64,000 nt of DNA from Octopus sinensis (taxonomy: Eukaryota): positions 65,658,001-65,722,000 of the forward strand of contig NC_043000.1 of the NCBI RefSeq assembly GCF_006345805.1, read 5' to 3'. Shown piece after piece: positions 2,279 through 63,627 of this stretch. The translations under genes and the position numbers were made by a program. The notes below the pieces were generated by a model. It had not been told where the DNA came from, made no database searches, and saw only the letters and a list, made by a program, of their open reading frames with translations. The first letter of the stretch is position 1, and the number at the start of each line of letters is the position of its first letter.

Positions 2279-2735
2279 ATTATATATATATTATTATATA
2301 TATATATTAATTATATATACGTACATATATTAATTATATTATATATATATTATTATATATATATATTAATTATATATACGTACATATATTAATTATATAT
2401 ATATATATATAATTATATATATACGTACATATATTATTATATATATATATATTAATTATATATATATATATTATTATATATATATATATTTATTTATTTA
2501 TTTATTTATTACATATATAAATGTATATTAATTACATATACATATTAATCATATATATATATATTATATGTATACATAAATACCAATTAAGGACTGAACA
2601 CGAAAAGTGGACAGTCAACATGCTAGATATAGACGTCAAATCGCCATTCACCACAAAAGATTATGTTCTCAGATCAAACTCAGCACAAAACCATAGCAAT
2701 AAACAAGTGAAAAATATACGAAATAAAATAATTAC

Positions 2736-2799
2736 CCATGTACTAATTAGTTTCGGCTGTTATTTTCCGCAAGGAAAACTGCAGCCATCATCAGCATGG
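2736..2799 (-). ncRNA. Type I hammerhead ribozyme, left arm of cassette 2
   Basis: Reverse complement of the 3247-3308 motif with intact core. Confidence 0.85.
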
Positions 2800-3246
2800 T
2801 CCGTTATAAATGCAATTTGCTGGACTAGATGCAAACACGATACCGAAATATCGCGTGCATGGAGTTCAGCCTATTACATTTGAATATATCTTTCAAATGC
2901 CTTTACTTTGGCGCGTTGAGGCCCGAGAAAACTAGCCTGCAGCTAATAATTAGCAGCAGTCAATTTATCGGTTACAGAACATATTTATTTATATAAAATT
3001 AATTAAGGGTAGAAATTGATTAATTTTATATAATTAATATAAATAAATAATATATAAATAAATATGTTCTGTAACCGATAAATTGACTGCTGCTAATTAT
3101 TAGCTGCAGGCTAGTTTTCTCGGGCCTCAACGCGCCAAAGTAAAGGCATTTGAAAGATATATTCAAATGTAATAGGCTGAACTCCATGCACGCGATATTT
3201 CGGTATCGTGTTTGCATCTAGTCCAGCAAATTGCATTTATAACGGA

Positions 3247-3308
3247 CCATGCTGATGATGGCTGCAGTTTTCCTGCGGAAATAACAGCCGAAACTAATTA
3301 GTACATGG
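3247..3308 (+). ncRNA. Type I hammerhead ribozyme, right arm of cassette 2
   Basis: CCATG-CTGATGA-T-GGCTG..TTTCC tgc GGAAA..CAGCC-GAAA-CTAATTAG-TA/CATGG; perfect stems I and II, palindromic ACUAAUUAGU, predicted cleavage after A3303. Confidence 0.9.
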
Positions 3309-3574
3309 GTAATTATTTTATTTCGTATATTTTTCACTTGTTTATTGCTATGGTTTTGTGCTGAGTTTGATCTGAGAACATAATCTTTTGTGGAAATGGC
3401 GATTTGACGTCTATATCTAGCATGTTGACTGTCCACTTTTCGTGTTCAGTCCTTAATTGGTATATATAAATATTTTAATCTTCGGATTCTTTTTTAATAT
3501 GCTAGACCACTGGTCTTAATTGATAAATATCAATTTCTACCCTTAATTAATTGTATACATAAATATATATTAAT

Positions 3575-4872: not shown

Positions 4873-5125
4873 TACATATGTACATACATGCATATATATA
4901 TATATATATATATAATTATTGAAGTAGATAAATGAATTATCTTATTACGGATAATTCAAATGATAACCGATACCTGGGTAGCAAAAATCACAACAGAAAA
5001 AACACGATTAAAGTTACGACCATGGGGCATAAAAACCGTGCCTTAGTGCGGAAATTTGAAGTTTTATATATTAAGTGTAGGAAGAAATGGAGCTGAACGA
5101 AGATTTAACAAAATTCCTTTATATT

Positions 5126-5211
5126 ATTTTCTACATATGTTTCATAGGCTGCAAAGTCCCTAATTCGGATTGAATAAGGAGTCCATTTTGCAGCTTTCTC
5201 TTCAGGAAAAT
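5126..5211 (-). ncRNA. Type I hammerhead ribozyme, left arm of cassette 3
   Basis: Reverse complement of 6096-6181 with core intact and base of stem II altered. Confidence 0.75.
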
Positions 5212-5806
5212 CCAGGAACTTAATTCTCCAACAAAATGCACAACAAGCTTTTCGACAAACGCTCACGAGGGGCCCATGAAATAAATGACACAAACTGTCT
5301 ATCTATATGCGTTGACGCCAGACTGGGTGAAAGCAGAAGAGATTGTCCGTTGAGATAGTTCAAGGTCAGAATCCGGTTGGCAGAAGGGGGGTACAGGAAA
5401 ATCAAAGAGTGTGAATGTATTCTGTATAACTGGTGTTTATATCTTGAATTATTTTAAGAATGAGTGTTAGAGTGTTTGAGTGTGAGAAAATGCTTTAATG
5501 TATGTGTGTGTGCGTCTATGTATGTGTGACAGTGTGTTTCGAAGGCAGAAAGAGAGAGAGAGATATAGCAGGTATTAATGGTCAAGAAACTGAAAAAACT
5601 GTGTCTGTGTGTTCGTATGTGACCCCTTGATAGAGAGAGGGGGTGTCCACAATGGCCATGGCAGGATACAGTGTTGCTGTCAGGGATGGCAGCAGTTTGA
5701 CAACTATTAGTTCTTATACTAACAGGGAAGGGATAACCCCTTTCAAATTTTATTCAAATTTTTTTCCCTTTTTTTTAGGAAATCCAGGGGTTATCTATAT
5801 TAGACT

Positions 5807-6036
5807 TCATTGGTATGAGAGAAAGGTATGCCGTTTCCAGTGGGGGCATCTGAAAGAATTTTGCACAATCGAGTTAACAAGCTGCCCTCGGGCGAACAAA
5901 ATATGAAAAAGTTCTGAGTTACAAAGAGTACAGATTTTTTTGCCCTTATCAAACGGTAAAGACACCGATAAAATTGACCATTCCAGTCTAAAAGTTGAAT
6001 TCGCGTTCTTCAAACGCTAGACTAATTTGCTTAGCT
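5807..6036 (-). pseudogene. C-terminus of a PLE GIY-YIG endonuclease
   Basis: LKNANSTFRLEWSILS..KKICTLCNSE..LVNS..RCPHWK matches the LK..W.I..CxLC..E..LN..CxH tail of PLE endonucleases. Confidence 0.7.
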
Positions 6037-6095
6037 CCTCGTGAGCGTTTGTCGAAAAGCTTGTTGTGAATTTTGTTGTAGAATTAAGTTCCTGG

Positions 6096-6181
6096 ATTTT
6101 CCTGAAGAGAAAGCTGCAAAATGGACTCCTTATTCAATCCGAATTAGGAACTTTACAGCCTTCGAAACATATGTAGAAAAT
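6096..6181 (+). ncRNA. Type I hammerhead ribozyme, right arm of cassette 3
   Basis: ATTTTC-CTGAAGA-GAAAGCTGCAAA..TTTACAGCCTTC-GAAA-CATATG-TA/GAAAAT; 6 bp stem I, long stem II, palindromic ACAUAUGU, predicted cleavage after A6175. Confidence 0.88.
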
Positions 6182-6230
6182 AATATAAAGGAATTTTGTT
6201 AAATCTTCGTTCAGCTCCATTTCTTCCTAC

Positions 6231-6269
<39 letters not shown>

Positions 6270-6800
6270 ATCATATTATATTAATACAACGGGTTTCTTA
6301 CATTTTCTGTTTACCAAATCCACTCACAGGCTTTGGTCGGCCCGAGGATATAGTAGAAGACACTTGCCTAAGGTGCTATGTACATGTGTGTGTGTGCGTG
6401 CGCGCGTATGTGTATGTGCATATGGTAACATGTTTATATACGTATGCGCATGCCTGAGCATGTGCATATATATGTGTGTGTGTGTGTTTGTGTTTGTGTC
6501 TATGTGCATGTATATGCGGGAAAGCATGTATGTATATATGTGAGTACGTGTTATGTATGTAGCTATGGTGAGATGTGAGTGGATGTATGTATGTATGCTG
6601 GAACGTACATGTACATAGTTGTATGTGCGTGCATGTATGCATCTATATGCGTATGTATTCATATTCATACATATATATGCATGCATATATATACATGTGT
6701 GCGAGGGTGTGTATATATATATGTATATGTGTGTATGTGTATGTGTGTATGTATACATGTGTATGTATATATGTATATGTATATATATGTATATATAATA

Positions 6801-7827: not shown

Positions 7828-7967
7828 GCTAATAACGTATATATATATATATATATATATGAGAAAAAATGAGGTAATCAGATCGGATGGTTCATATTTA
7901 TAGATATTATTTATATATACATTTTTTACATATAATATCTATCATATCATTCAGATCATATCATTCG

Positions 7968-8012
7968 GATTATTAGCGCTTTCTCCAATCCAGTGGGGTT
8001 TTCAAATCAATC
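7968..8012 (-). ncRNA. Hammerhead-like motif with U3-A8 core, left arm of cassette 4
   Basis: Minus strand GATTGAT-TTGAAAA-CCCCactggattGGA-GAAAGCGCTA-ATAATC; stem II weak. Confidence 0.45.
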
Positions 8013-8154
8013 AATTCCTTTGTGGGGAATTTGAACATTTTATAGAGTTTCGTAGTAGTGGGGAGGAATAAGACAGTATTATACTGTCTTACTGTCTTAT
8101 TTCTCCCCACTACTACGAACTCTATAAAATGTTCAAATTCCCCACAAAGGAATT

Positions 8155-8201
8155 GATTTGATTTGAAAACCCCACTGCATTGGGAGAAAGCGCTAATAAT
8201 C
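8155..8201 (+). ncRNA. Hammerhead-like motif with U3-A8 core, right arm of cassette 4
   Basis: GATTTGAT-TTGAAAA-CCCC actgcatt GGGA-GAAA-GCGC-TA/ATAATC; palindromic AGCGCU. Confidence 0.55.
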
Positions 8202-8411
8202 CGAATGATATGATCTGAATGATATGATAGATATATATATGTAAAAAATGTAATATATAAATAAATATCTATAAATATGAACCATCCGATCTGATTACCT
8301 CATTTTTTCTAATATATAATACCTGTACATCATCTCCAAACCTTCCAATATATATATATATAATATATTATATATATATATATATAATATATATATTATA
8401 TATATATATAT

Positions 8412-12395: not shown

Positions 12396-12659
12396 AAAAT
12401 GGACTGACTCCATTAAAACTTTTGAAAACTTCTTACAGCTTCCATCGTCATGTTTTTATTTTCATATTGTAATAGACAGCTACCACACAGAAAACACTAG
12501 CTGCCAAATCCTGTTTTCTGATTGGGGAAAAAATCGCCAAACTTTAAATCTCTGTAACATTTTACTAACATTTTTCTGGAATAGATGTATCGAAATCAGA
12601 TTCAGCGTGATTAATTACATCAATAAAGCAAATTTGAATTTTCACTTAATTTTCAAATT

Positions 12660-14406
12660 TCCAAGTCTGTGACATCGTTCAGCTGGATTTCACAGCTAGT
12701 AAATAATCCAAAATGTTCTATTTGAAATCTTGATTGTTTTCAGCGGCTGCTAGTCGTCGGCCAGTTAATATTCTTCTGTAGTGGAATTTCAAGTTCTTTA
12801 TAGTTCCTGCGTCCATAGATTGCATTACAGACATGGTATTTGGAGGGAAGAAGATCAGCTCGACATTTTCCAGTTCAATTTGTGGATGGGCTGAGCAGTT
12901 GTCGACGATCATAGCAACTTTTCGATTTTCGTTTCTCATGCGACGGTTAAAATTTCTCATCTCAGATTCGAAAATGTCACTACGCATGCAAGCTTTTTTA
13001 TACGCCTGGTGCATAATAGAAGGATTTTTGAACGCACGCAGTTTTGTACTTTTACCTATTGCGAGAAGCGGCATTTTTCAGACCCGTCCATGTTGGAGAC
13101 GACCAGTAAAGTTATTCTCGTTTGGGGTTGGTTTTTTCCATTTATTCTGTTCACCAATAAACTCGAGGCTTCTCTCAGGTAACATTTGCCAAAATAGACC
13201 AGTTTCGTCACAATTGAATATGTTACGTTCTTGATAGCGTGTCAGAACGTCGTTCGTCACACCTTCTCTCCATTCCTTAACCATATCCAAGTCCACACCT
13301 CCGGATTCACCTGAATTCAGGACCTTTCCTACATTCCAGCGTTTCTTCCACCTTTCAATCCATACAGTACTCGGCATGGTTTCACAGTTGAATTCCTTCG
13401 CAAAATATGCAGTTTTCTGTATCAGCATTTCCCTATCAATCCATAAATTCGGCTTGGAGTAATATTGTCTGAATCAAAAAATGAGCGCCTGGTCTACATC
13501 ATCATAATTTGTCGCGCGGATTCGCTTTCTAGAAGTGTCTGGTCTCGCGTCCTTCTTTCTCGATTTCTCTCTAATTTTGTTCTTGTTTTTAATAATGTCA
13601 CTAAGTGTCTGCTTTGGAATTTCAAAGTGTGAGGCGATAGCTGTCTTTTTCATCGAGCTATTTTTGTCACAGTATTCTAAAATTTCCAACTTTTTATCGG
13701 TGTTAGAGCATTCCATTTCCGTTTGAATGGAAATGGAAAGTTCAACATGAAAAAATACAAATTCGCACAACAAAAGGACGGGAACGTGACAAAAACGTAT
13801 GGATCTTTGTGGTTTTCGTCACTGCAAGTGGAAATCTTCAAAAATATTCTTTAATGTAGCATTTAGATGTAATTTGTGATGCTGAATCTGAATTTGTTAT
13901 TCATCTATTCCAGAAAAAAATTGCGAAAATGTTACAGGTGTTCAAGGTTTGATAGATTTCAGAATTTTCAGCCAATCAGAAAGCAGCGCGTTCATTGCCT
14001 CTTCTATTGTCTGTCACAGTAGCAAAAAGATGGTGGGGGGCATGTAAAAGCATTAGAGATAACAGTTAAAATATTAAAATATACAGGAGCAAAGTAAACA
14101 GTGTAAAATATTAAAACATACGCGAGCAAATTAAATATTTAAAAGCTACGAGCAAACCAACTAGATTTGCTAGAAATAAGTCAAAACCTTGCTTAAAACA
14201 AACATTTATCAGTGAAAAAATAACCGAGGAAATTTACGTTGTTTTTGACCATTTGGGTCGAGAAAAATTGTCCGTTATGAGTGAATCTCAGTTATATCCG
14301 AGTCCGTTATAGGAACCGAAATCTATATGAAATTTCTATTACGAAAATCCGGACCGGACTATTTTGTCAGTTATAAGCGATTGTCCGTTATATTCAAAGT
14401 CTACTG
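12660..14406 (-). mobile_element. pogo/Tigger DNA transposon, frameshifted and 3'-truncated
   Basis: TA+CAGTAGAC terminus at 14408-14399; psq HTH (IASHFEIPKQTLSDIIKNK), CENP-B HTH (WIERWKKR), DDE motifs IFNCDETGLFW, IVDNCSAH, FFPPN..QSMD across three broken ORFs. Confidence 0.92.
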
Positions 14407-27645: not shown

Positions 27646-30600
27646 CCCCGACACCAAACACCATGTACAAAGGAACTACGAAGAAATTAAATACCACCGA
27701 TATTATTCAACCCAAGAATAACAATCGGGAGGTACGTACTTTAAACTTACAACACAAAACGTACGAAAAACTACACGTGCAAAACAATGTGACAACAGAA
27801 ATGAACGGACCGGTACCCTACGAAAATGACGACCGTCAAAATAATGGGCCGGACGTTGTTCCTCATGTCCCGCAAATAAAACCCAAAAGACATAAATGGA
27901 CACGTGAGGAATACATTTCTATCCTACACGCATACTTCACAGCAATGCTCTACCCAAAAAATGAAAACACAACAACACATACATATAAAATATGGAAAGA
28001 AAATAACATAAATATAGACTTGGATACAGCAATGAACCCTAACGTACGAAGATACATTCTCAACGCAAAAAAATATCAGAAATAGAAATAGAACACCTTA
28101 AAGAAAAAATACACCAGGAAAATGTAGATAGAAGCCACACAACAATGCCCAATAATATAAAAACTGAAACAGTAAAACACGAAGACAAACGTAACATTCC
28201 CAACAAACACGATGTAAATAAAAAACAACAAACCCAGACCGTAAGGATGCATAATAATACACGACAAACAGCAAGTCAAAACACGGCAAACAAACATATA
28301 AATAAGAAAGAAAGCGACACAAATCTAAAACCTGGAAACAACGAAGGGGAGCCTAATGATTATGATAATATAAAAAGTAAAATAGTCAAAGAACTGAAAA
28401 ACCCCAGAGCTCAAAATGGACCACCGACCATACCTCCCAAAAATCAAAATAGACGAAACAACAACACCAATTATAAACAACATAAACCTAGCCGTCACGG
28501 AACTAATAGCCACTGAAACAAAAAGCGATATCACTGAGCTAAATGACTTAGTATACGCAGCAGCCACTGCAGCTACAAAAGAAGCTGGATACTCACTCAA
28601 ACCCATCCAAACAGGAGTACCACCACCCAAACAAACCTTGTGGATAAATAACATCCAAAACAAAATACAAAAAATGAGAAAAGATCTGTCGATTCTTAAT
28701 GAAATCAGAAGACAATCAACGCTACTGAGCAACAAAAAGAAAACAAAAATACTCCGCAAATATAACATCACAGAAAAAGATTTACCTGAGATAAAAGAAA
28801 AGCTGAAGCAAGATATCCTTGCCAAAGCACAAAGGATCCGCCGGTACGAGAAACGCCAGCGCTTCTTTGAACAAAACAAAAAGTTCAACTCCAACTCCAA
28901 AAAGTTCTACCAAGAACTTGGCAAAAATAAAATAGAAATCACTGCAGCACCAACGGCAGAAGAAGTGGAAGAATTCTGGAGAGAAATATGGTCGGCGAAC
29001 GAACAACAACAAAAAAAGGAGTATTAAAACAACAAACTCAGCATCTGAACAACTTTGGACCCCCATAACAACTGAAGAGGTCACCCAGGCACTGCAAAGA
29101 CTAAGCAACTGAAAGGCACCTGAGCATGACAAGATCCCCAACTTCTGGTTGAAATATCTAACAGGAATGCACAAAAAGCTGGCTGAAAACTTTAATAACA
29201 TACTGGCAGAGCCAGAGACAATGCCTGAATGGCTCACGAAGAGGAAAACCATCTTAATTCCCAAATCAAATGAGACAGCAAAACCAGAAAACTACAGACC
29301 AATAACCTGTCTCCCTACAATGTACAAGGCACTTACTTCAGTGATATCGCAAAGGTTGAACAAGCACCTGGACGAAAACAACCTGTTTCCAGAAGAGCAG
29401 AAAGGATGCCGCAAAGGCTCATATGGCTGTAAAGATCAACTAATGATTAATAAAGCCATAACTGAAGACAGCCACAGAAAGAAGAAAGGTCTCAGTATGG
29501 CCTGGATCGACTACAAAAAGGCGTTTGATAGCATCCCCCACACATGGATCCTCGAAACACTAGCCATTAACAAAGTAGCACCAACAATTATAAAATTCAT
29601 AGGGCACTCTATGAATAAATGGCAAACAGTGCTACAGCTCCAAGCAAAAGAGGGACTCATGAAAACCAAAGCCATCCCCATTAGAAGAGGAATATTCCAG
29701 GGAGACACGCTCTCTCCACTCCTTTTCTGCTTGGCACTGTCACCTCTATCTGATATGCTAAATAGAACTGGATACGGATATAAATGTTACGGCAAAACGA
29801 TCAGCTACCTTTTATATATGGATGACCTACAACTATACGCTGCAAATGACAAACAGCTGGAAACACTATTAAAGACAGTTCATGGATTTACCAAAGAAAT
29901 AGATATGAAATTTGGATTAGAAAAATGGGCCAAAGTAACCATGAAAAGAGGAAAACTAGTTAAGAGTAGCAACATCACACTAGATAAAACCAATGAAATA
30001 AAAGAATTAGACCAAAGCCAAACTTACAAATACTTAGGAATCCATGAACTAGATAAGACACAACACACACAAATGAAAGAGAAAATAAAAAAAGAATATT
30101 ATAGACGAGTTAGATCAATACTAAAAACAGAGCTCAATGCTAAAAACAAGATAATAGGTATTAACACTTTAGCTGTCCCAGTTATAAGTTACAGCTACGA
30201 TATCCTTAACTGGACACTAAATGAACTGACCAAAATAGATAGGAAAACAAGAGAAATATGACAGGATCTAGGATGCATCACCCAAAATCTGACATAGAAA
30301 GACTATATATACAACGTATAGAAGGTGTAGAGGCCTTATACAGCTGGAAAACTACTATAAAATAACCACCATAGGACTGCAAAAAATATCTACTTCAGAA
30401 GGAAGGAAAACTGATACAAATAGCGGCAAAACACGAGCAAAACAAAAACTGTTCTCAGTATTTAAGGAAGCTGACAAATACAAACAAGAAATCATACCAC
30501 CTAATAAATAAGAAGAAGAAGAAGAAGAAGAGAAGAAGAAGAAGAAGAAGAGAAGAAGAAGAAGAAGAAGAAAAGAAGAAGAAGAAGAAGAAGAAGAAGA

Positions 30601-31561
30601 AGAAGAAGAAGAAGAAGAAAAGAAGAAGAAAAACAACAAAAGCTATAAAACAAATGAAATCCAAACTAAAAATAGAACAGCAACGAACCATGCTAAAACG
30701 ATGGCAAGAAAAGCCCCTTCATGGTAAATACTGGACTAAACAAATCGCAAAAGAAATAGACAAAGAAAAATCCCAGCAATGGTTGAGAAGCTCAGGACTC
30801 AAAGCAGAGACAGAGGGGTTTTTAATTGCAGCACAAGACCAAAGCCTTCCCACCAGAAATTACCAAAAACATGTAATGAAAAGAAATATAACAAGTAACT
30901 GCAGAATATGTGGAGATGGACAAGAAACAATAAATCATATTATCTCTGGCTGCCCAGTCCTGGCTAAGAAGGAATATATTCACAGACATGACAGAGTTGG
31001 AACCTACATACACTGGAAGTTATGCCAATATTATGGAATAACAACAGAAAAAAGATGGTATAGGCACACACCAGAAAAGGTCACAGAAAACGAGAAAGCA
31101 ACCATACTCTGGGATATGCCGATACACACAGATAGAGAAATTAAGGCCAACAGACCAGATATAGTTGTCAGAGATCATGAAGAAAAAAATGCTTTCTAAT
31201 TGGTGTATCAATACCGGCAGATGACAACGTATCTCTAAAAGAAATGGAGAAACTTTCAAAATACAAAGACCTGGAAATAGAGGTAACCAGAATGTGGAAT
31301 CTAAAAACAGAAACAATTCCTATCATAGTAGGTGCATTAGGCATGATAAAAAAATATTCAGACAAATACAAACAAAAAACACCAGGACTTACAACACATA
31401 TAACATACAGAAAATTGCACTACTAGGCACTGCACACATCCTACGCAGAACACTTTCCATACAATAACCATCAGAGCATCACAACAAATTACAGCACATA
31501 CCTAAGGCACAGAGAGCTGCGCTCGGTAGTGAAGTGAAAGCACGCTATAAAAATAAAACTA

Positions 31562-35374: not shown

Positions 35375-36692
35375 ATGCACATGTAATGTACTTAAAAGGT
35401 ACACACAATTGTTATTTAATTTTTAAAATTTTAATTACATGTAACTTCAAAAAATTTAATGTTGAAAGGTAAAAATCCTATTGAATATCATATTTAATTA
35501 TGAACTAAGTAAATTAGAAGTGAGCTTGTCCATGTTACTTTCATGTACTTATGTAAATATCAAAATGTATTTCTCAAAGTATATTTTGATTAACGGCAAT
35601 TAATTCTGTGCGAGTCCTTTTAAAAACAATTTGTTTCATTCCTTTAAAACATGTTATAACCAATTGGTTATAAACAACTAATTTTGGCTGGAATGTTTGC
35701 ATAATAGTTAGAGCGTTGTTGAAATGCCTTACAGCATTTCTTCATGCTCGCTGAATTCAAATCTCACCGAGACCAATATCTACCACTTAATCTATCTCAT
35801 AAAACACTAACAGATTAAGCATCTAGAACAGCTAAATATTTGATGCATTTATTTTAATGGCATTCCCAATATGCTACATTGAAGATTTCTCAATGGTCAG
35901 TTAGCGCGTAAATATATAGATATATTATTTTCTTTTACTCTACTCAAGGTCATGTAATGCAGTGGAAGACTTTTACTAGATCAGTTCGATCTAAATAGTA
36001 TCACTGGCACAAAATTAATTTAGTGGAACACACAATAACTACCATTTAAATTTAAAGTAAGATAAACCTACAGTTACAGACTTCAGGAAGAAATTCAACA
36101 TAATGGATACTGCAACAAACGTAGCTGAGACATAGAATGAATTGAAAACCTCAATTTTGAATGATGCTTAGAAAAATATATTGCCTGACTGCCTTCGTGA
36201 CTTTACAAGTTTTCTACAAGCTGTTAAGAACAAGAGCAAGCTGAGAATATAGATGACAGTGCGGAAAATTTATCAACTCCACTTAAACTAAGCTAACAGA
36301 ACATTGCTAAGGGTTGGCACTTATAGAGGAAGTTCTGCAAGTTATTGCTGATAGGAGACCTAATCGTGTATATAACATGAAATTATTGAAAAAGGAATTT
36401 ACAATGAAATGTTCCTACACTGAAGAGCTGACACACTGTAAACAATACTCAAGTAGATGTTCATGATGATGGACTATAAGATAAGAGGCAGTGTCCTTCT
36501 TGCTCCCAGTAACCACTCATTCCACTCCCCTCCCTCAAACAGTTGTCAACCTCTTTTGTGGTAAGAACGTACTCTGTTATGATATGATTCTTCTATATTC
36601 TTAACGTATTTCTCATCGAATGCTTTTATATATATATATGAAAAAACAAGTCAAAAATAGAAAATGCTAAGATAATTTTATAGTGAATCTTT

Positions 36693-36730
36693 CAGTACCG
36701 GTTTCGGTCATTTGGAGACCTTTTCAACTG
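36693..36730 (-). ncRNA. Minimal hammerhead with U3-A8 core, left arm of cassette 5
   Basis: Minus strand CAG-TTGAAAA-GGTC tccaaat GACC-GAAA-CCGG-TA/CTG; palindromic ACCGGU. Confidence 0.75.
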
Positions 36731-36901
36731 TAACGATTAAATAATTAAATTTAGAAAAATTAGAAGAAAAGTTTTTTTAAAAGAATATTTCTGTAGTAGT
36801 GTTCAGATATAAGTAGCATTCTGCCTTTCACTGACTCCCTTGTTTGCACTTTTAAAAAAACTTTTCTTCTAATTTTTCAAAATTTAATTATTTAATCGTT
36901 A

Positions 36902-36939
36902 CAGTTGAAAAGGTCTCAAAATGACCGAAGCCGGTACTG
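36902..36939 (+). ncRNA. Minimal hammerhead with U3-A8 core, right arm (A15.1 to G)
   Basis: CAG-TTGAAAA-GGTC tcaaaat GACC-GAAG-CCGG-TA/CTG. Confidence 0.6.
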
Positions 36940-37034
36940 AAAGATACACTATAAAATTATCTTAGCATTTTCTATTTTTGACTTGTTTTTTCATATATAT
37001 CAACTCGTGTGTTCCTTTCCACCCTTATACATAT

Positions 37035-37110: not shown

Positions 37111-37290
37111 CATATATCATAATAATATATATATATAATAATATATACATATATATATAAAATTATATATATATATATATATATATTTTATAATATAATA
37201 TTTTTTAACCAAACGGAAACAAAAAACAACAACAATGGAACAATTACAGTATTATTATTAATAGGCGCTCAGGAAAAGGAAGCAGGGAGG

Positions 37291-37327
37291 TATGACGTTT
37301 CGAGCGGAGCTCTTCGTCGGAAACATA
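37291..37327 (-). ncRNA. Minimal hammerhead-like motif, GAGC/GCTC family
   Basis: Minus strand CCGACGA-A-GAGC tcc GCTC-GAAACGTC; U4 to C, stem I irregular. Confidence 0.45.
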
Positions 37328-38049
37328 AAGAAGGAAGAGAGAGGAAAGAAAGATCCAGAGCGGGCAACAGGGAAAGAGAAAAAGACGACTGGTGTTTACG
37401 AGTTGCACATGGTGAAAGGCGGATGTTTACGAAAACAGAGCAAAGTGGGTTTTTAAAGGCAAAAGAGTGGAGACAAGGTTGGTAACGCAGCAGAGGTGTG
37501 TGTATGTGTGAGTGTGTGCGTGTGCGTGTGTGTATGTGTGTGTGTGAGGCGAGATGAAAAAACAAAAAATATATATGTGTGTGTTAGTGTGTGCGTCTGT
37601 GTGTAGGCGTGTGAGGTAGGGCGAGATAGTGGTCAGCTTAGCAGACAAAGGTCAGTAGTAAGAAAAAGAAGGAAGGAGGAAGGGAGGGAGGGGAAGGGGT
37701 GGGGCGTATGTAGCGTGCCAGCGTGTGTTGAGTAGTAGTGTGTGTGTGTGTCCAGTGTCGTGGTGGTATAAATGGCGAGTAGATTGAATGTGTGTAAGAG
37801 TAATGTATATATTTAAGCAATGTGTGTATATGTGTGCGCGTGTGTGTAACGGAAAAGGGGGGGGGTTAAGGAGAAAGGACTCCAGCTGAGGGGAAGATGG
37901 AAGAGTGGTCCCGCGGAGGCGGACGTGAGAAAACCCAACGACACGCGACGGTCCCAGGGACGGGCGGGAGGTCTTGTCGGTTCCAAGAGCGAGGTGCCTG
38001 CGGAGCGTATGCGTACGCGAACCGGCGCAAGCGCGTGCGTGCGCGAGCC

Positions 38050-43440: not shown

Positions 43441-43948
43441 ATTAGGACCATTTGACATTGACCTAGTTTCTCTCACCAAATAGCAGTAATTGGCATTTAT
43501 TAGTGGCAATTGCTGTCTTCGACATGAATTCCTTTTATGGAGTTCTGAAACCTCCTTTACCCCATTTCTACAATTAAAAAAATCTTTATTGCTTCTAACC
43601 TTACAGCAGTTAGGAACAGCCATATCTTAGTCAGTCAGTGGAAGGACTTCACTACCTCATATGTTCTTAAAATTTAAATCCACATCTTTGTCTGTATATC
43701 TACTTTCTCTATAATGTTGCCACTTGATTTGAAAATTTTTGTATTAATGGAAACCCTCTATATTGGCTGATGAGTACTCAGCATCTTAAATCTGTTGTAC
43801 CTTACAACATTTAATAAAATGATGTAGTACGAAACGATCGTACCAAATTACCGGAGTCATTCTTGTTGCTTATTTTGATGCATATATATATATATATGTA
43901 TATAACATCGTCATTATTATTATCATTATTACTATTACTATTACTATG

Positions 43949-63417: not shown

Positions 63418-63526
63418 AATATAGTTAATCCAAACATGAAAACACAAAGAGAAAACACAACAACACGAGGACGTGGAACAAGTATAGTGTTATTGGACGC
63501 TCAGGAAAGGAAAGAAAGAAGGAGGC

Positions 63527-63559
63527 TTTAACGCTTCGAGCGGAGCTCTTCGTCAGAAA
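63527..63559 (-). ncRNA. Minimal hammerhead-like motif, GAGC/GCTC family
   Basis: Minus strand TTT-CTGACGA-A-GAGC tcc GCTC-GAAGCGTT-AAA; canonical CUGACGA, A15.1 to G. Confidence 0.55.
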
Positions 63560-63627
63560 CATATAAAAAGGAAAGATTCAAGGAAGGGAAGACGGAGGAA
63601 AAAAATCGCCAACGATACACACGCGGT

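Follow-up and report, generated by a model that had tools for sequence, protein, structure and literature searches.

A 5'-truncated Penelope-like element of probable Hydra-clade origin with an inverted copy of its own end in Octopus sinensis

A dead copy of a Penelope-like element (PLE), by its sequence very probably a 5'-truncated member of the Hydra clade, lies between two (TA)n runs in the window, by which we mean the whole 64-kb stretch of Octopus sinensis DNA analysed here, and carries at its truncation point an inverted copy of its own terminal repeat (Table 1). We give a probability of about 60% to the whole account, in which two target-primed reverse transcriptions were joined head to head to produce this insertion. 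The element is a new family within a known clade, in a known arrangement: a truncated copy with an inverted 5' copy and a one-sided tail has already been described (PMC8557442, File S1 and the legend of Fig. 2), and the same layout is in PMC2377424 (Fig. 1C legend), PMC3846280 and PMC4209133. The locus itself is of little weight, since its family seems to be abundant and this is a single decayed member of it.

Table 1. Features of the insertion and its flanks, in window positions.
Feature	Position	Strand	Remarks
(TA)n run, left end	4892-4913		likely one half of the target microsatellite
One-sided 3' tail, ~158 bp	4914-5072	-	high contig depth in 4/4 runs; bridging contigs; X2 joints
Terminal repeat (pLTR-like arm), element orientation, 201 bp	5073-5273	-	
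Type I hammerhead	5211-5126	-	descriptor match; cleavage predicted after 5132
Rest of 3' UTR	5274-5806	-	family repeat; contig depth declines with distance from the 3' end
Endonuclease end: last 74 codons plus stop, in-frame TAG at 6019-6017	5807-6034	-	
Head-to-head junction	6034 to 6037		1 nt (6034) to 4 nt (6034-6037) possibly common to both segments
Inverted arm copy with second hammerhead motif, tail absent	6034-6234	+	
Mirrored hammerhead in inverted arm	6096-6181	+	descriptor match; G-C closing pair of helix II intact
(TA)n run, right end	6235-6262		

The window is microsatellite-rich and holds many repeats. At the locus (4892-6262), blastn and a repeat finder detected a single inverted pair of arms which, trimmed to the TA runs, measure 201 bp each (5073-5273 and 6034-6234) and agree at 194 of 201 positions, the seven mismatches corresponding to a difference of 3.5%; no further copies of either arm were found within the 64-kb window. 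An earlier note on this DNA had described a 5'-truncated PLE with an inverted terminal copy, which these arms and the Penelope-like relatives of the encoded peptide confirm, and had seen in the structure a record of the insertion reaction, a view that we share, the layout itself being already published. The same note had placed the truncation, and with it the junction, at 6037 and had proposed a 9-nt junction microhomology, CCTCGTGAG. At the mirror position 5271, the contigs of all four public sequencing runs used here (X1, X2, X9 and X14, placed on 4890-6288; X9 and X14 are possibly RNA) have the letter of the right arm; of 11 tblastn queries, eight place the start of protein homology at 6034 and the remaining three begin within the homologous stretch; the junction is therefore moved to 6034. 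Read in the frame of the ORF, CCTCGTGAG encodes H-E where relatives have x-T/S (among 22 motif matches in 27 relatives, T or S stands at that position in 20, the two exceptions being misplaced, and neither E there nor the preceding H occurs in any of the 22), and it is thus arm sequence only. The preceding glutamate codon at the junction corresponds to an E in 8 of the 22 matched relatives, and the overlap between the two segments amounts at most to 1 nt, or to 4 nt if this codon is parental. The copy is dead and not recent, since it has an in-frame stop, a 3.5% difference between its arms and a weakened base of the left helix II.

The assignment to the Hydra clade comes from the coding remnant and its surroundings. 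On the minus strand, the reading starts at 6034 with LSKLV, meets the in-frame TAG (6019-6017) at the position where relatives have W, and continues from 6016 for 69 aa to the stop at 5809-5807, with the pattern ...LEWSIL...CTLCNSE...LVNS...CPHW.... A phmmer search of 1.84 billion representative proteins returned 30 matches at E<=0.001 (best 2.1e-10), 27 of which make up alignment A1; the alignment omits P0006, P0008 and P0013, which are long and match over short cysteine-rich stretches. The 27 aligned relatives have in common W, I, CxLC, E, I, N and C, and the string over them reads T-x-LS-xx-W-x-LK ... W-x-I ... C-x-LC-xx-E ... LN ... C-x-H. The relative P0017 (658 aa) combines the reverse transcriptase (RT) motifs DKT and YRDDGL with the same end and is 35% identical to the peptide (pairwise E 9e-13), and Pfam GIY-YIG appears below cut-off in P0012 and P0019, two of the 18 proteins scanned. 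A profile built from the 27 relatives, with the window row excluded, has the peptide site as its sole significant match in the window (2.4e-27). PMC8557442 defines the Hydra clade by an endonuclease at the C-terminus in which CxxC and CxH surround conserved E and N, by canonical hammerheads and by (TA)n targets; the octopus peptide has the corresponding residues (C29-C32, E35, N48 and C57-H59), and TA runs lie at both ends of the insertion. Other marks of the clade, namely a CxCX5C linker, the RWK and DKT motifs, the lack of CCHH and the position in the RT phylogeny, belong to regions that this copy has lost. By eye, the motif string of the peptide is present in four Hydra-clade rows in the last block of the Fig. 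S7 text of that paper and missing from the Penelope, Poseidon, Nematis and Neptune rows of the same figure; also by eye, the coral consensus Hydra-2_Amil (PMC8557442) has GAATTTTGT, TCTTCGTT and CTACACTT downstream of the ribozyme, in the order found in both arms.

Of the minus-strand GIY-YIG C-terminus claimed in the earlier note, the CxLC..CPH peptide and its stop (5809-5807) stand, while the GIY-YIG motif itself is absent from the fragment, which keeps only the last 74 codons. Pfam recognised no domain in the peptide; a weak KDM6 GATA-like match (E 0.016) was rejected. Searches of proteins and metagenome contigs recovered no RT, GIY-YIG core or full-length member of the family, and the clade assignment therefore rests on 74 codons plus their context. 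Word-indexed protein searches, which count as weak evidence, found nothing that matches the peptide in proteins of near or greater length, and nothing that matches residues 55-150 of P0004 in longer ones. The metagenome contigs held no exact match to a ribozyme motif, and their 170 pattern matches yielded no confirmed relative for alignment A2.

Each arm contains a type I hammerhead motif, and the descriptor search returned exactly the coordinates that had been proposed for the left one (5211-5126), mirrored at 6096-6181. The left motif consists of a 6-bp stem I (5211-5206/5131-5126), CUGAAGA (5205-5199), a 55-nt helix II (5198-5144) and GAAA. The length of about 55 nt previously given for a stem II insert is right, but it is that of the whole helix II region and not of an insert added to it. 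In both motifs helix III is palindromic and GUA occupies the predicted cut site; the closing pair of helix II is weakened in the left copy (5211-5126). The type I descriptor found 7 motifs in the window, compared with a mean of 0.02 (maximum 1) in 100 shuffles. Rfam gave no hammerhead match for 4900-6300 at E<=10 and none among the matches listed for the whole window (the best 150 of 181, microsatellite-driven), and unconstrained folds of the two motifs are unremarkable (z of -0.52 and -0.14). According to PMC4209133, helix III is unstable in metazoan PLE ribozymes, which likely act as dimers. In our model the ribozyme would be a passenger of the repeat, whose predicted cleavage would not be required to explain this copy. 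A long helix II is not unique in the window, with one of 57 nt at 43767. At an X2 contig joint (5145-5176), a variant of the family appears without 32 nt of the distal helix II, which suggests that the long helix II is dispensable or variable.

How the two segments came together was approached through the head-to-head joints of the family that public contigs show in other genomes (15 of the 18 rows of the joint table were listed, plus the joints of a further table). In run X2, the inverted arm starts at 5265-5273 in 8 of the 10 joints listed, one of these starts extending to 5275 if two intervening letters are counted. The partner segment stops in these eight joints at 4947, 4972, 5043, 5118, 5160, 5180, 5237 and 5281, and in the window's own copy it ends at 6034; the other two X2 joints start at 5194 and at 5942 or 5474. 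Six of the eight clustered joints begin at 6039-6042, inside the reference arm, and are therefore not clipped by the arm edge. All of these joints come from short contigs with 20-28 letters on the short side, seven of the eight are flagged 'between: not known', and they need not be independent insertions; a binomial calculation for the cluster gives ~3e-9 after 23 bins, a post hoc value computed on 8 of 9 joints under assumed independence and indicative only. Among the four runs, the cluster at ~5270 is seen in X2 only. Three of the four joints listed for X1 start at 5122-5123 and one at 5151, and the single joint listed for X9 starts at 5149; the X1 cluster lies 8-9 nt beyond the predicted cut (5132/5131) and may stem either from cleaved RNA or simply from a subfamily that has diverged. 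In all four runs contigs cover the arm region much more deeply than the remainder, and summed contig depth, which is not copy number, drops 4- to 21-fold across ~5270, a step that window-private differences at 5271-5288 may deepen. The sequence near 5270 has no TATA box and only common Inr-like words.

The X2 joints, the depth step and the double-strand priming at two internal sites observed in vitro for the anole PLE PAc make twin priming the simplest model; the anole protein cuts and extends both strands, and its two internal start sites delimit the tail (PMC11167929). In the octopus, the GIY-YIG domain of the element would have nicked both strands of the (TA)n. A first primer would have begun at the tail's far end (~4914), copied ~1120 nt and stalled at 6034, while a second would have started at an inner site (the equivalent of 5073), 59 nt beyond the cut predicted for the ribozyme, and been extended over 201 nt. 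The tail starts right after 5073 with a TA-like stretch, AATATATAAAA, which could, as a speculation, anneal a (TA)n primer to the RNA. The second cDNA would then have halted at a preferred stop, probably the RNA 5' end inside an upstream pseudo-LTR, and the two cDNA ends would have been joined through a microhomology of no more than 1-4 nt, or through none. The RNA 5' end is proposed as the stop because transcription of Penelope in D. virilis begins within the pLTR, a short way upstream of the ribozyme and 46 nt ahead of an intron whose end is at hammerhead helix I; in the octopus element the arm boundary lies 62 nt before helix I. An inherited pLTR boundary would probably explain the stop nearly as well. 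The tail, which at ~158 bp is about four times as long as the usual 30-40 bp of PLEs, counts against the proposed account, as do the lack of a TATA box near 5270 and the variable size of the inverted repeats in D. virilis (PMC2377424).

The start of the arm could indeed have been inherited, from a master copy with an upstream pLTR 5'-truncated at ~5270 or from an amplified non-autonomous derivative, and the unit appended in inverted orientation by a template jump, although we hold this to be unlikely. The much greater depth of the arm region in all four runs and the preferred starts that differ between runs would both suit such an origin, as would the A. vaga PLEs, which have pLTRs of set length (193-218 bp) and one 181-bp inverted copy (PMC3846280). 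However, the tail is present on the partner and absent from the inverted arm, which fits two initiation sites, and the length of the partner is free to vary whereas that of the arm is not. Distinctly unlikely, in our view, is self-priming or fold-back, in which the nascent strand, possibly on an antisense template, folds or jumps onto itself and copies the element end. In seven of the eight clustered X2 joints the arm is missing, wholly or in part, from the partner, which was therefore unable to template it; fold-back and copying of the nascent strand are thus excluded in those joints. For the octopus copy, fold-back is disfavoured, as the arm copies a region 760 bp from the truncation point and no hairpin is found at the junction. 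Palindromes at inverted junctions have nonetheless led to the proposal of such a route for A. vaga PLEs (PMC3846280), and the near-perfect palindromes of other window cassettes (2583-3460) and the X1 joints at 5122 would agree with it. Arm starts that cluster while the partner length varies freely tell twin priming apart from fold-back, and any long-read assembly that contains the family would allow them to be counted.

The account set out above also counts the tail as part of the element, which had been taken to end at 5073. The tail region 4914-5072 is deeply covered by contigs in four of four runs; two X14 contigs (records 9 and 10) bridge tail and arm across 5073, with 10 differences in 127 positions and 28 in 193, and in three X2 joints tail-only segments are fused straight to the arm start. 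Since TA runs lie outside these features, the insertion most likely extends over 4914-6234 with the tail on one side. It is improbable that the tail is a separate repeat in the same TA run, given these divergent bridging contigs and joints, even if it has a TA-like start, is longer than known tails and in run X1 is partly (4937-5030) deeper than the arm. This X1 depth, together with a variant continuation before 4964 in all four runs, may mean that the tail is shared with a more abundant subfamily. No convincing ORF start was found on translation of 4914-5072. Both flanks of the insertion are (TA)n, and any target-site duplication would be hidden in the microsatellite. Finally, a DNA transposon or MITE with 201-bp TIRs and a TA duplication, which would have captured a PLE fragment or been mobilised secondarily by a transposase, is very improbable: its long inverted ends would adjoin TA and a TA duplication is possible inside the microsatellite, but the arm runs colinear with the 3' UTR of the PLE (which is ~730 nt long; X14 contig record 13 covers 5122-5728), the arm holds a hammerhead, the left arm is followed by the family tail and not by target DNA, inner lengths vary on one side only, and there is no transposase in the unit. 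The TIR transposon with a target-site duplication, which the earlier note had kept as the competing identity, and the MITE class are rejected on the 158 bp of family sequence between the left arm and its TA run.

More generally, and tentatively, the inverted PLE arm might be a run-off cDNA, primed from the other target strand at the inner initiation site and stopping at a fixed RNA 5' end; this end would be the transcription start for arms of ~200 bp, and for those of ~50 bp in X1 it may be the hammerhead cut. If this were true, arm length would be a genomic read-out of the template 5' end, high-copy Hydra families would hold thousands of natural records on the formation of PLE inverted repeats, and the same records would bear on ribozyme cleavage of the transposing RNA in vivo. 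PMC8557442 names as an open question how the tandem and inverted repeats of PLEs are formed. The run-off reading was not found in the largely open-access literature searched.

Other cassettes of the window had been read as the same product with shorter cDNAs. This did not hold, as none of the 14 other regions compared with the focal element at word size 7 matches it beyond one 24-bp hit (E 0.005); shorter versions of the focal family are present in public contigs. The cassettes 1256-1899 and 2583-3460 have the same geometry, with outward-facing hammerhead motifs near (TA)n, and are probably the same kind of product from other PLE families. The second is a 99%-identical 398-bp palindrome with outward Hydra-type hammerheads (2794 on the minus and 3252 on the plus strand); its centre is rich in AT and its flanks in TA, and it is probably young and produced by another family. 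By eye, its ribozyme resembles Penelope-HM entries in File S2 of PMC8557442. The first is an older palindrome (~80%) between TA runs, with hammerhead-like motifs at 1350 (-) and 1825 (+) and unequal helix II lengths. Single type I hammerhead motifs at 4114-4067 (-) and 43767-43842 (+) represent two further families, with (TA)n after ~45-150 bp, and minimal-type hammerhead-core hairpins lie at 63556 (-), about 37310 (-) and 32809 (+); the regions 37221-37336 and 63452-63573 are related (73%). Long TA-flanked palindromes without a canonical hammerhead core are found at 36632-37000 and 7862-8310, the former of which contains a degenerate stretch resembling a core and matches the 2583 cassette over 19 bp. 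The window also contains a decayed DNA transposon (12511-13986) with imperfect inverted ends of ~120 bp and a minus-strand transposase-like reading, which we take to be of the pogo/Tigger type, and a non-LTR retrotransposon remnant (28043-31196, +) in which 29113-30258 matches Pfam RVT_1 (E 9e-34); on the minus strand from 25066 to about 22300, Pfam gave no match for the two longest open stretches. For annotation, it is a warning that ribozyme-bearing palindromes in (TA)n resemble MITEs and are likely retrotransposon products.

In L1 twin priming, two primers provided by the target strands yield an inverted, head-to-head product with a short microhomology at the joint; its segments are adjacent, non-overlapping parts of one RNA, and the second priming is variable. 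In the octopus element, by contrast, the second segment duplicates the element end and has a preferred length. Among PLEs, inverted pLTRs of ~200 bp are found on truncated copies in A. vaga (PMC3846280), Penelope-13_HM has a 5'-truncated inverted copy at its own 5' end (PMC8557442), and the inverted repeats of D. virilis are of variable size (PMC2377424). The A. vaga elements Pen2a/Pen2, for which the authors favour self-priming, differ from the octopus element in that they belong to the Penelope/Poseidon group and have a 31-bp tail and discrete target duplications of 8-10 bp (PMC3846280). The Anolis Poseidon element PAc would resemble it in the cutting and extension of both target strands, in two internal initiation sites flanking the tail and in an AT-rich target, whereas it belongs to another clade, its ORF starts inside the ribozyme and its tail is 30-40 nt; its ribozyme is dispensable for insertion in vitro, and the available part of that paper offers no explanation of inverted arms (PMC11167929).

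Opposite-strand pairs of PLE-derived hammerheads, 100-700 bp apart, were described in Schistosoma in 2014 (PMC4209133), and non-LTR retrozymes have been proposed to derive from PLE pLTRs (bioRxiv 10.64898/2026.07.22.740005). Unlike such retrozymes, which are head-to-tail non-coding hammerhead tandems and were rejected as a class, the octopus element has two inverted copies with coding sequence between them, and its ribozyme, in which helix III is present and helix II is long, is not of the minimal form. A Naiad/Chlamys PLE, with an N-terminal endonuclease followed by RT and no canonical hammerhead, was likewise rejected, the endonuclease end here preceding a stop, the UTR and a canonical hammerhead motif. 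Compared with Hydra-1_Obim, also from an octopus (PMC8557442), the UTR and ribozyme do not match by eye, which makes it a different family. The Hydra-clade PLEs of PMC8557442 share with the octopus element the endonuclease end CxxC..E..N..CxH, a type I hammerhead with a short palindromic helix III inside the 3' UTR as well as the (TA)n target; helix II measures roughly 11-25 nt in the Hydra ribozymes of that paper against 55 nt here, and the spike-moss PLE described there has a similarly long one.
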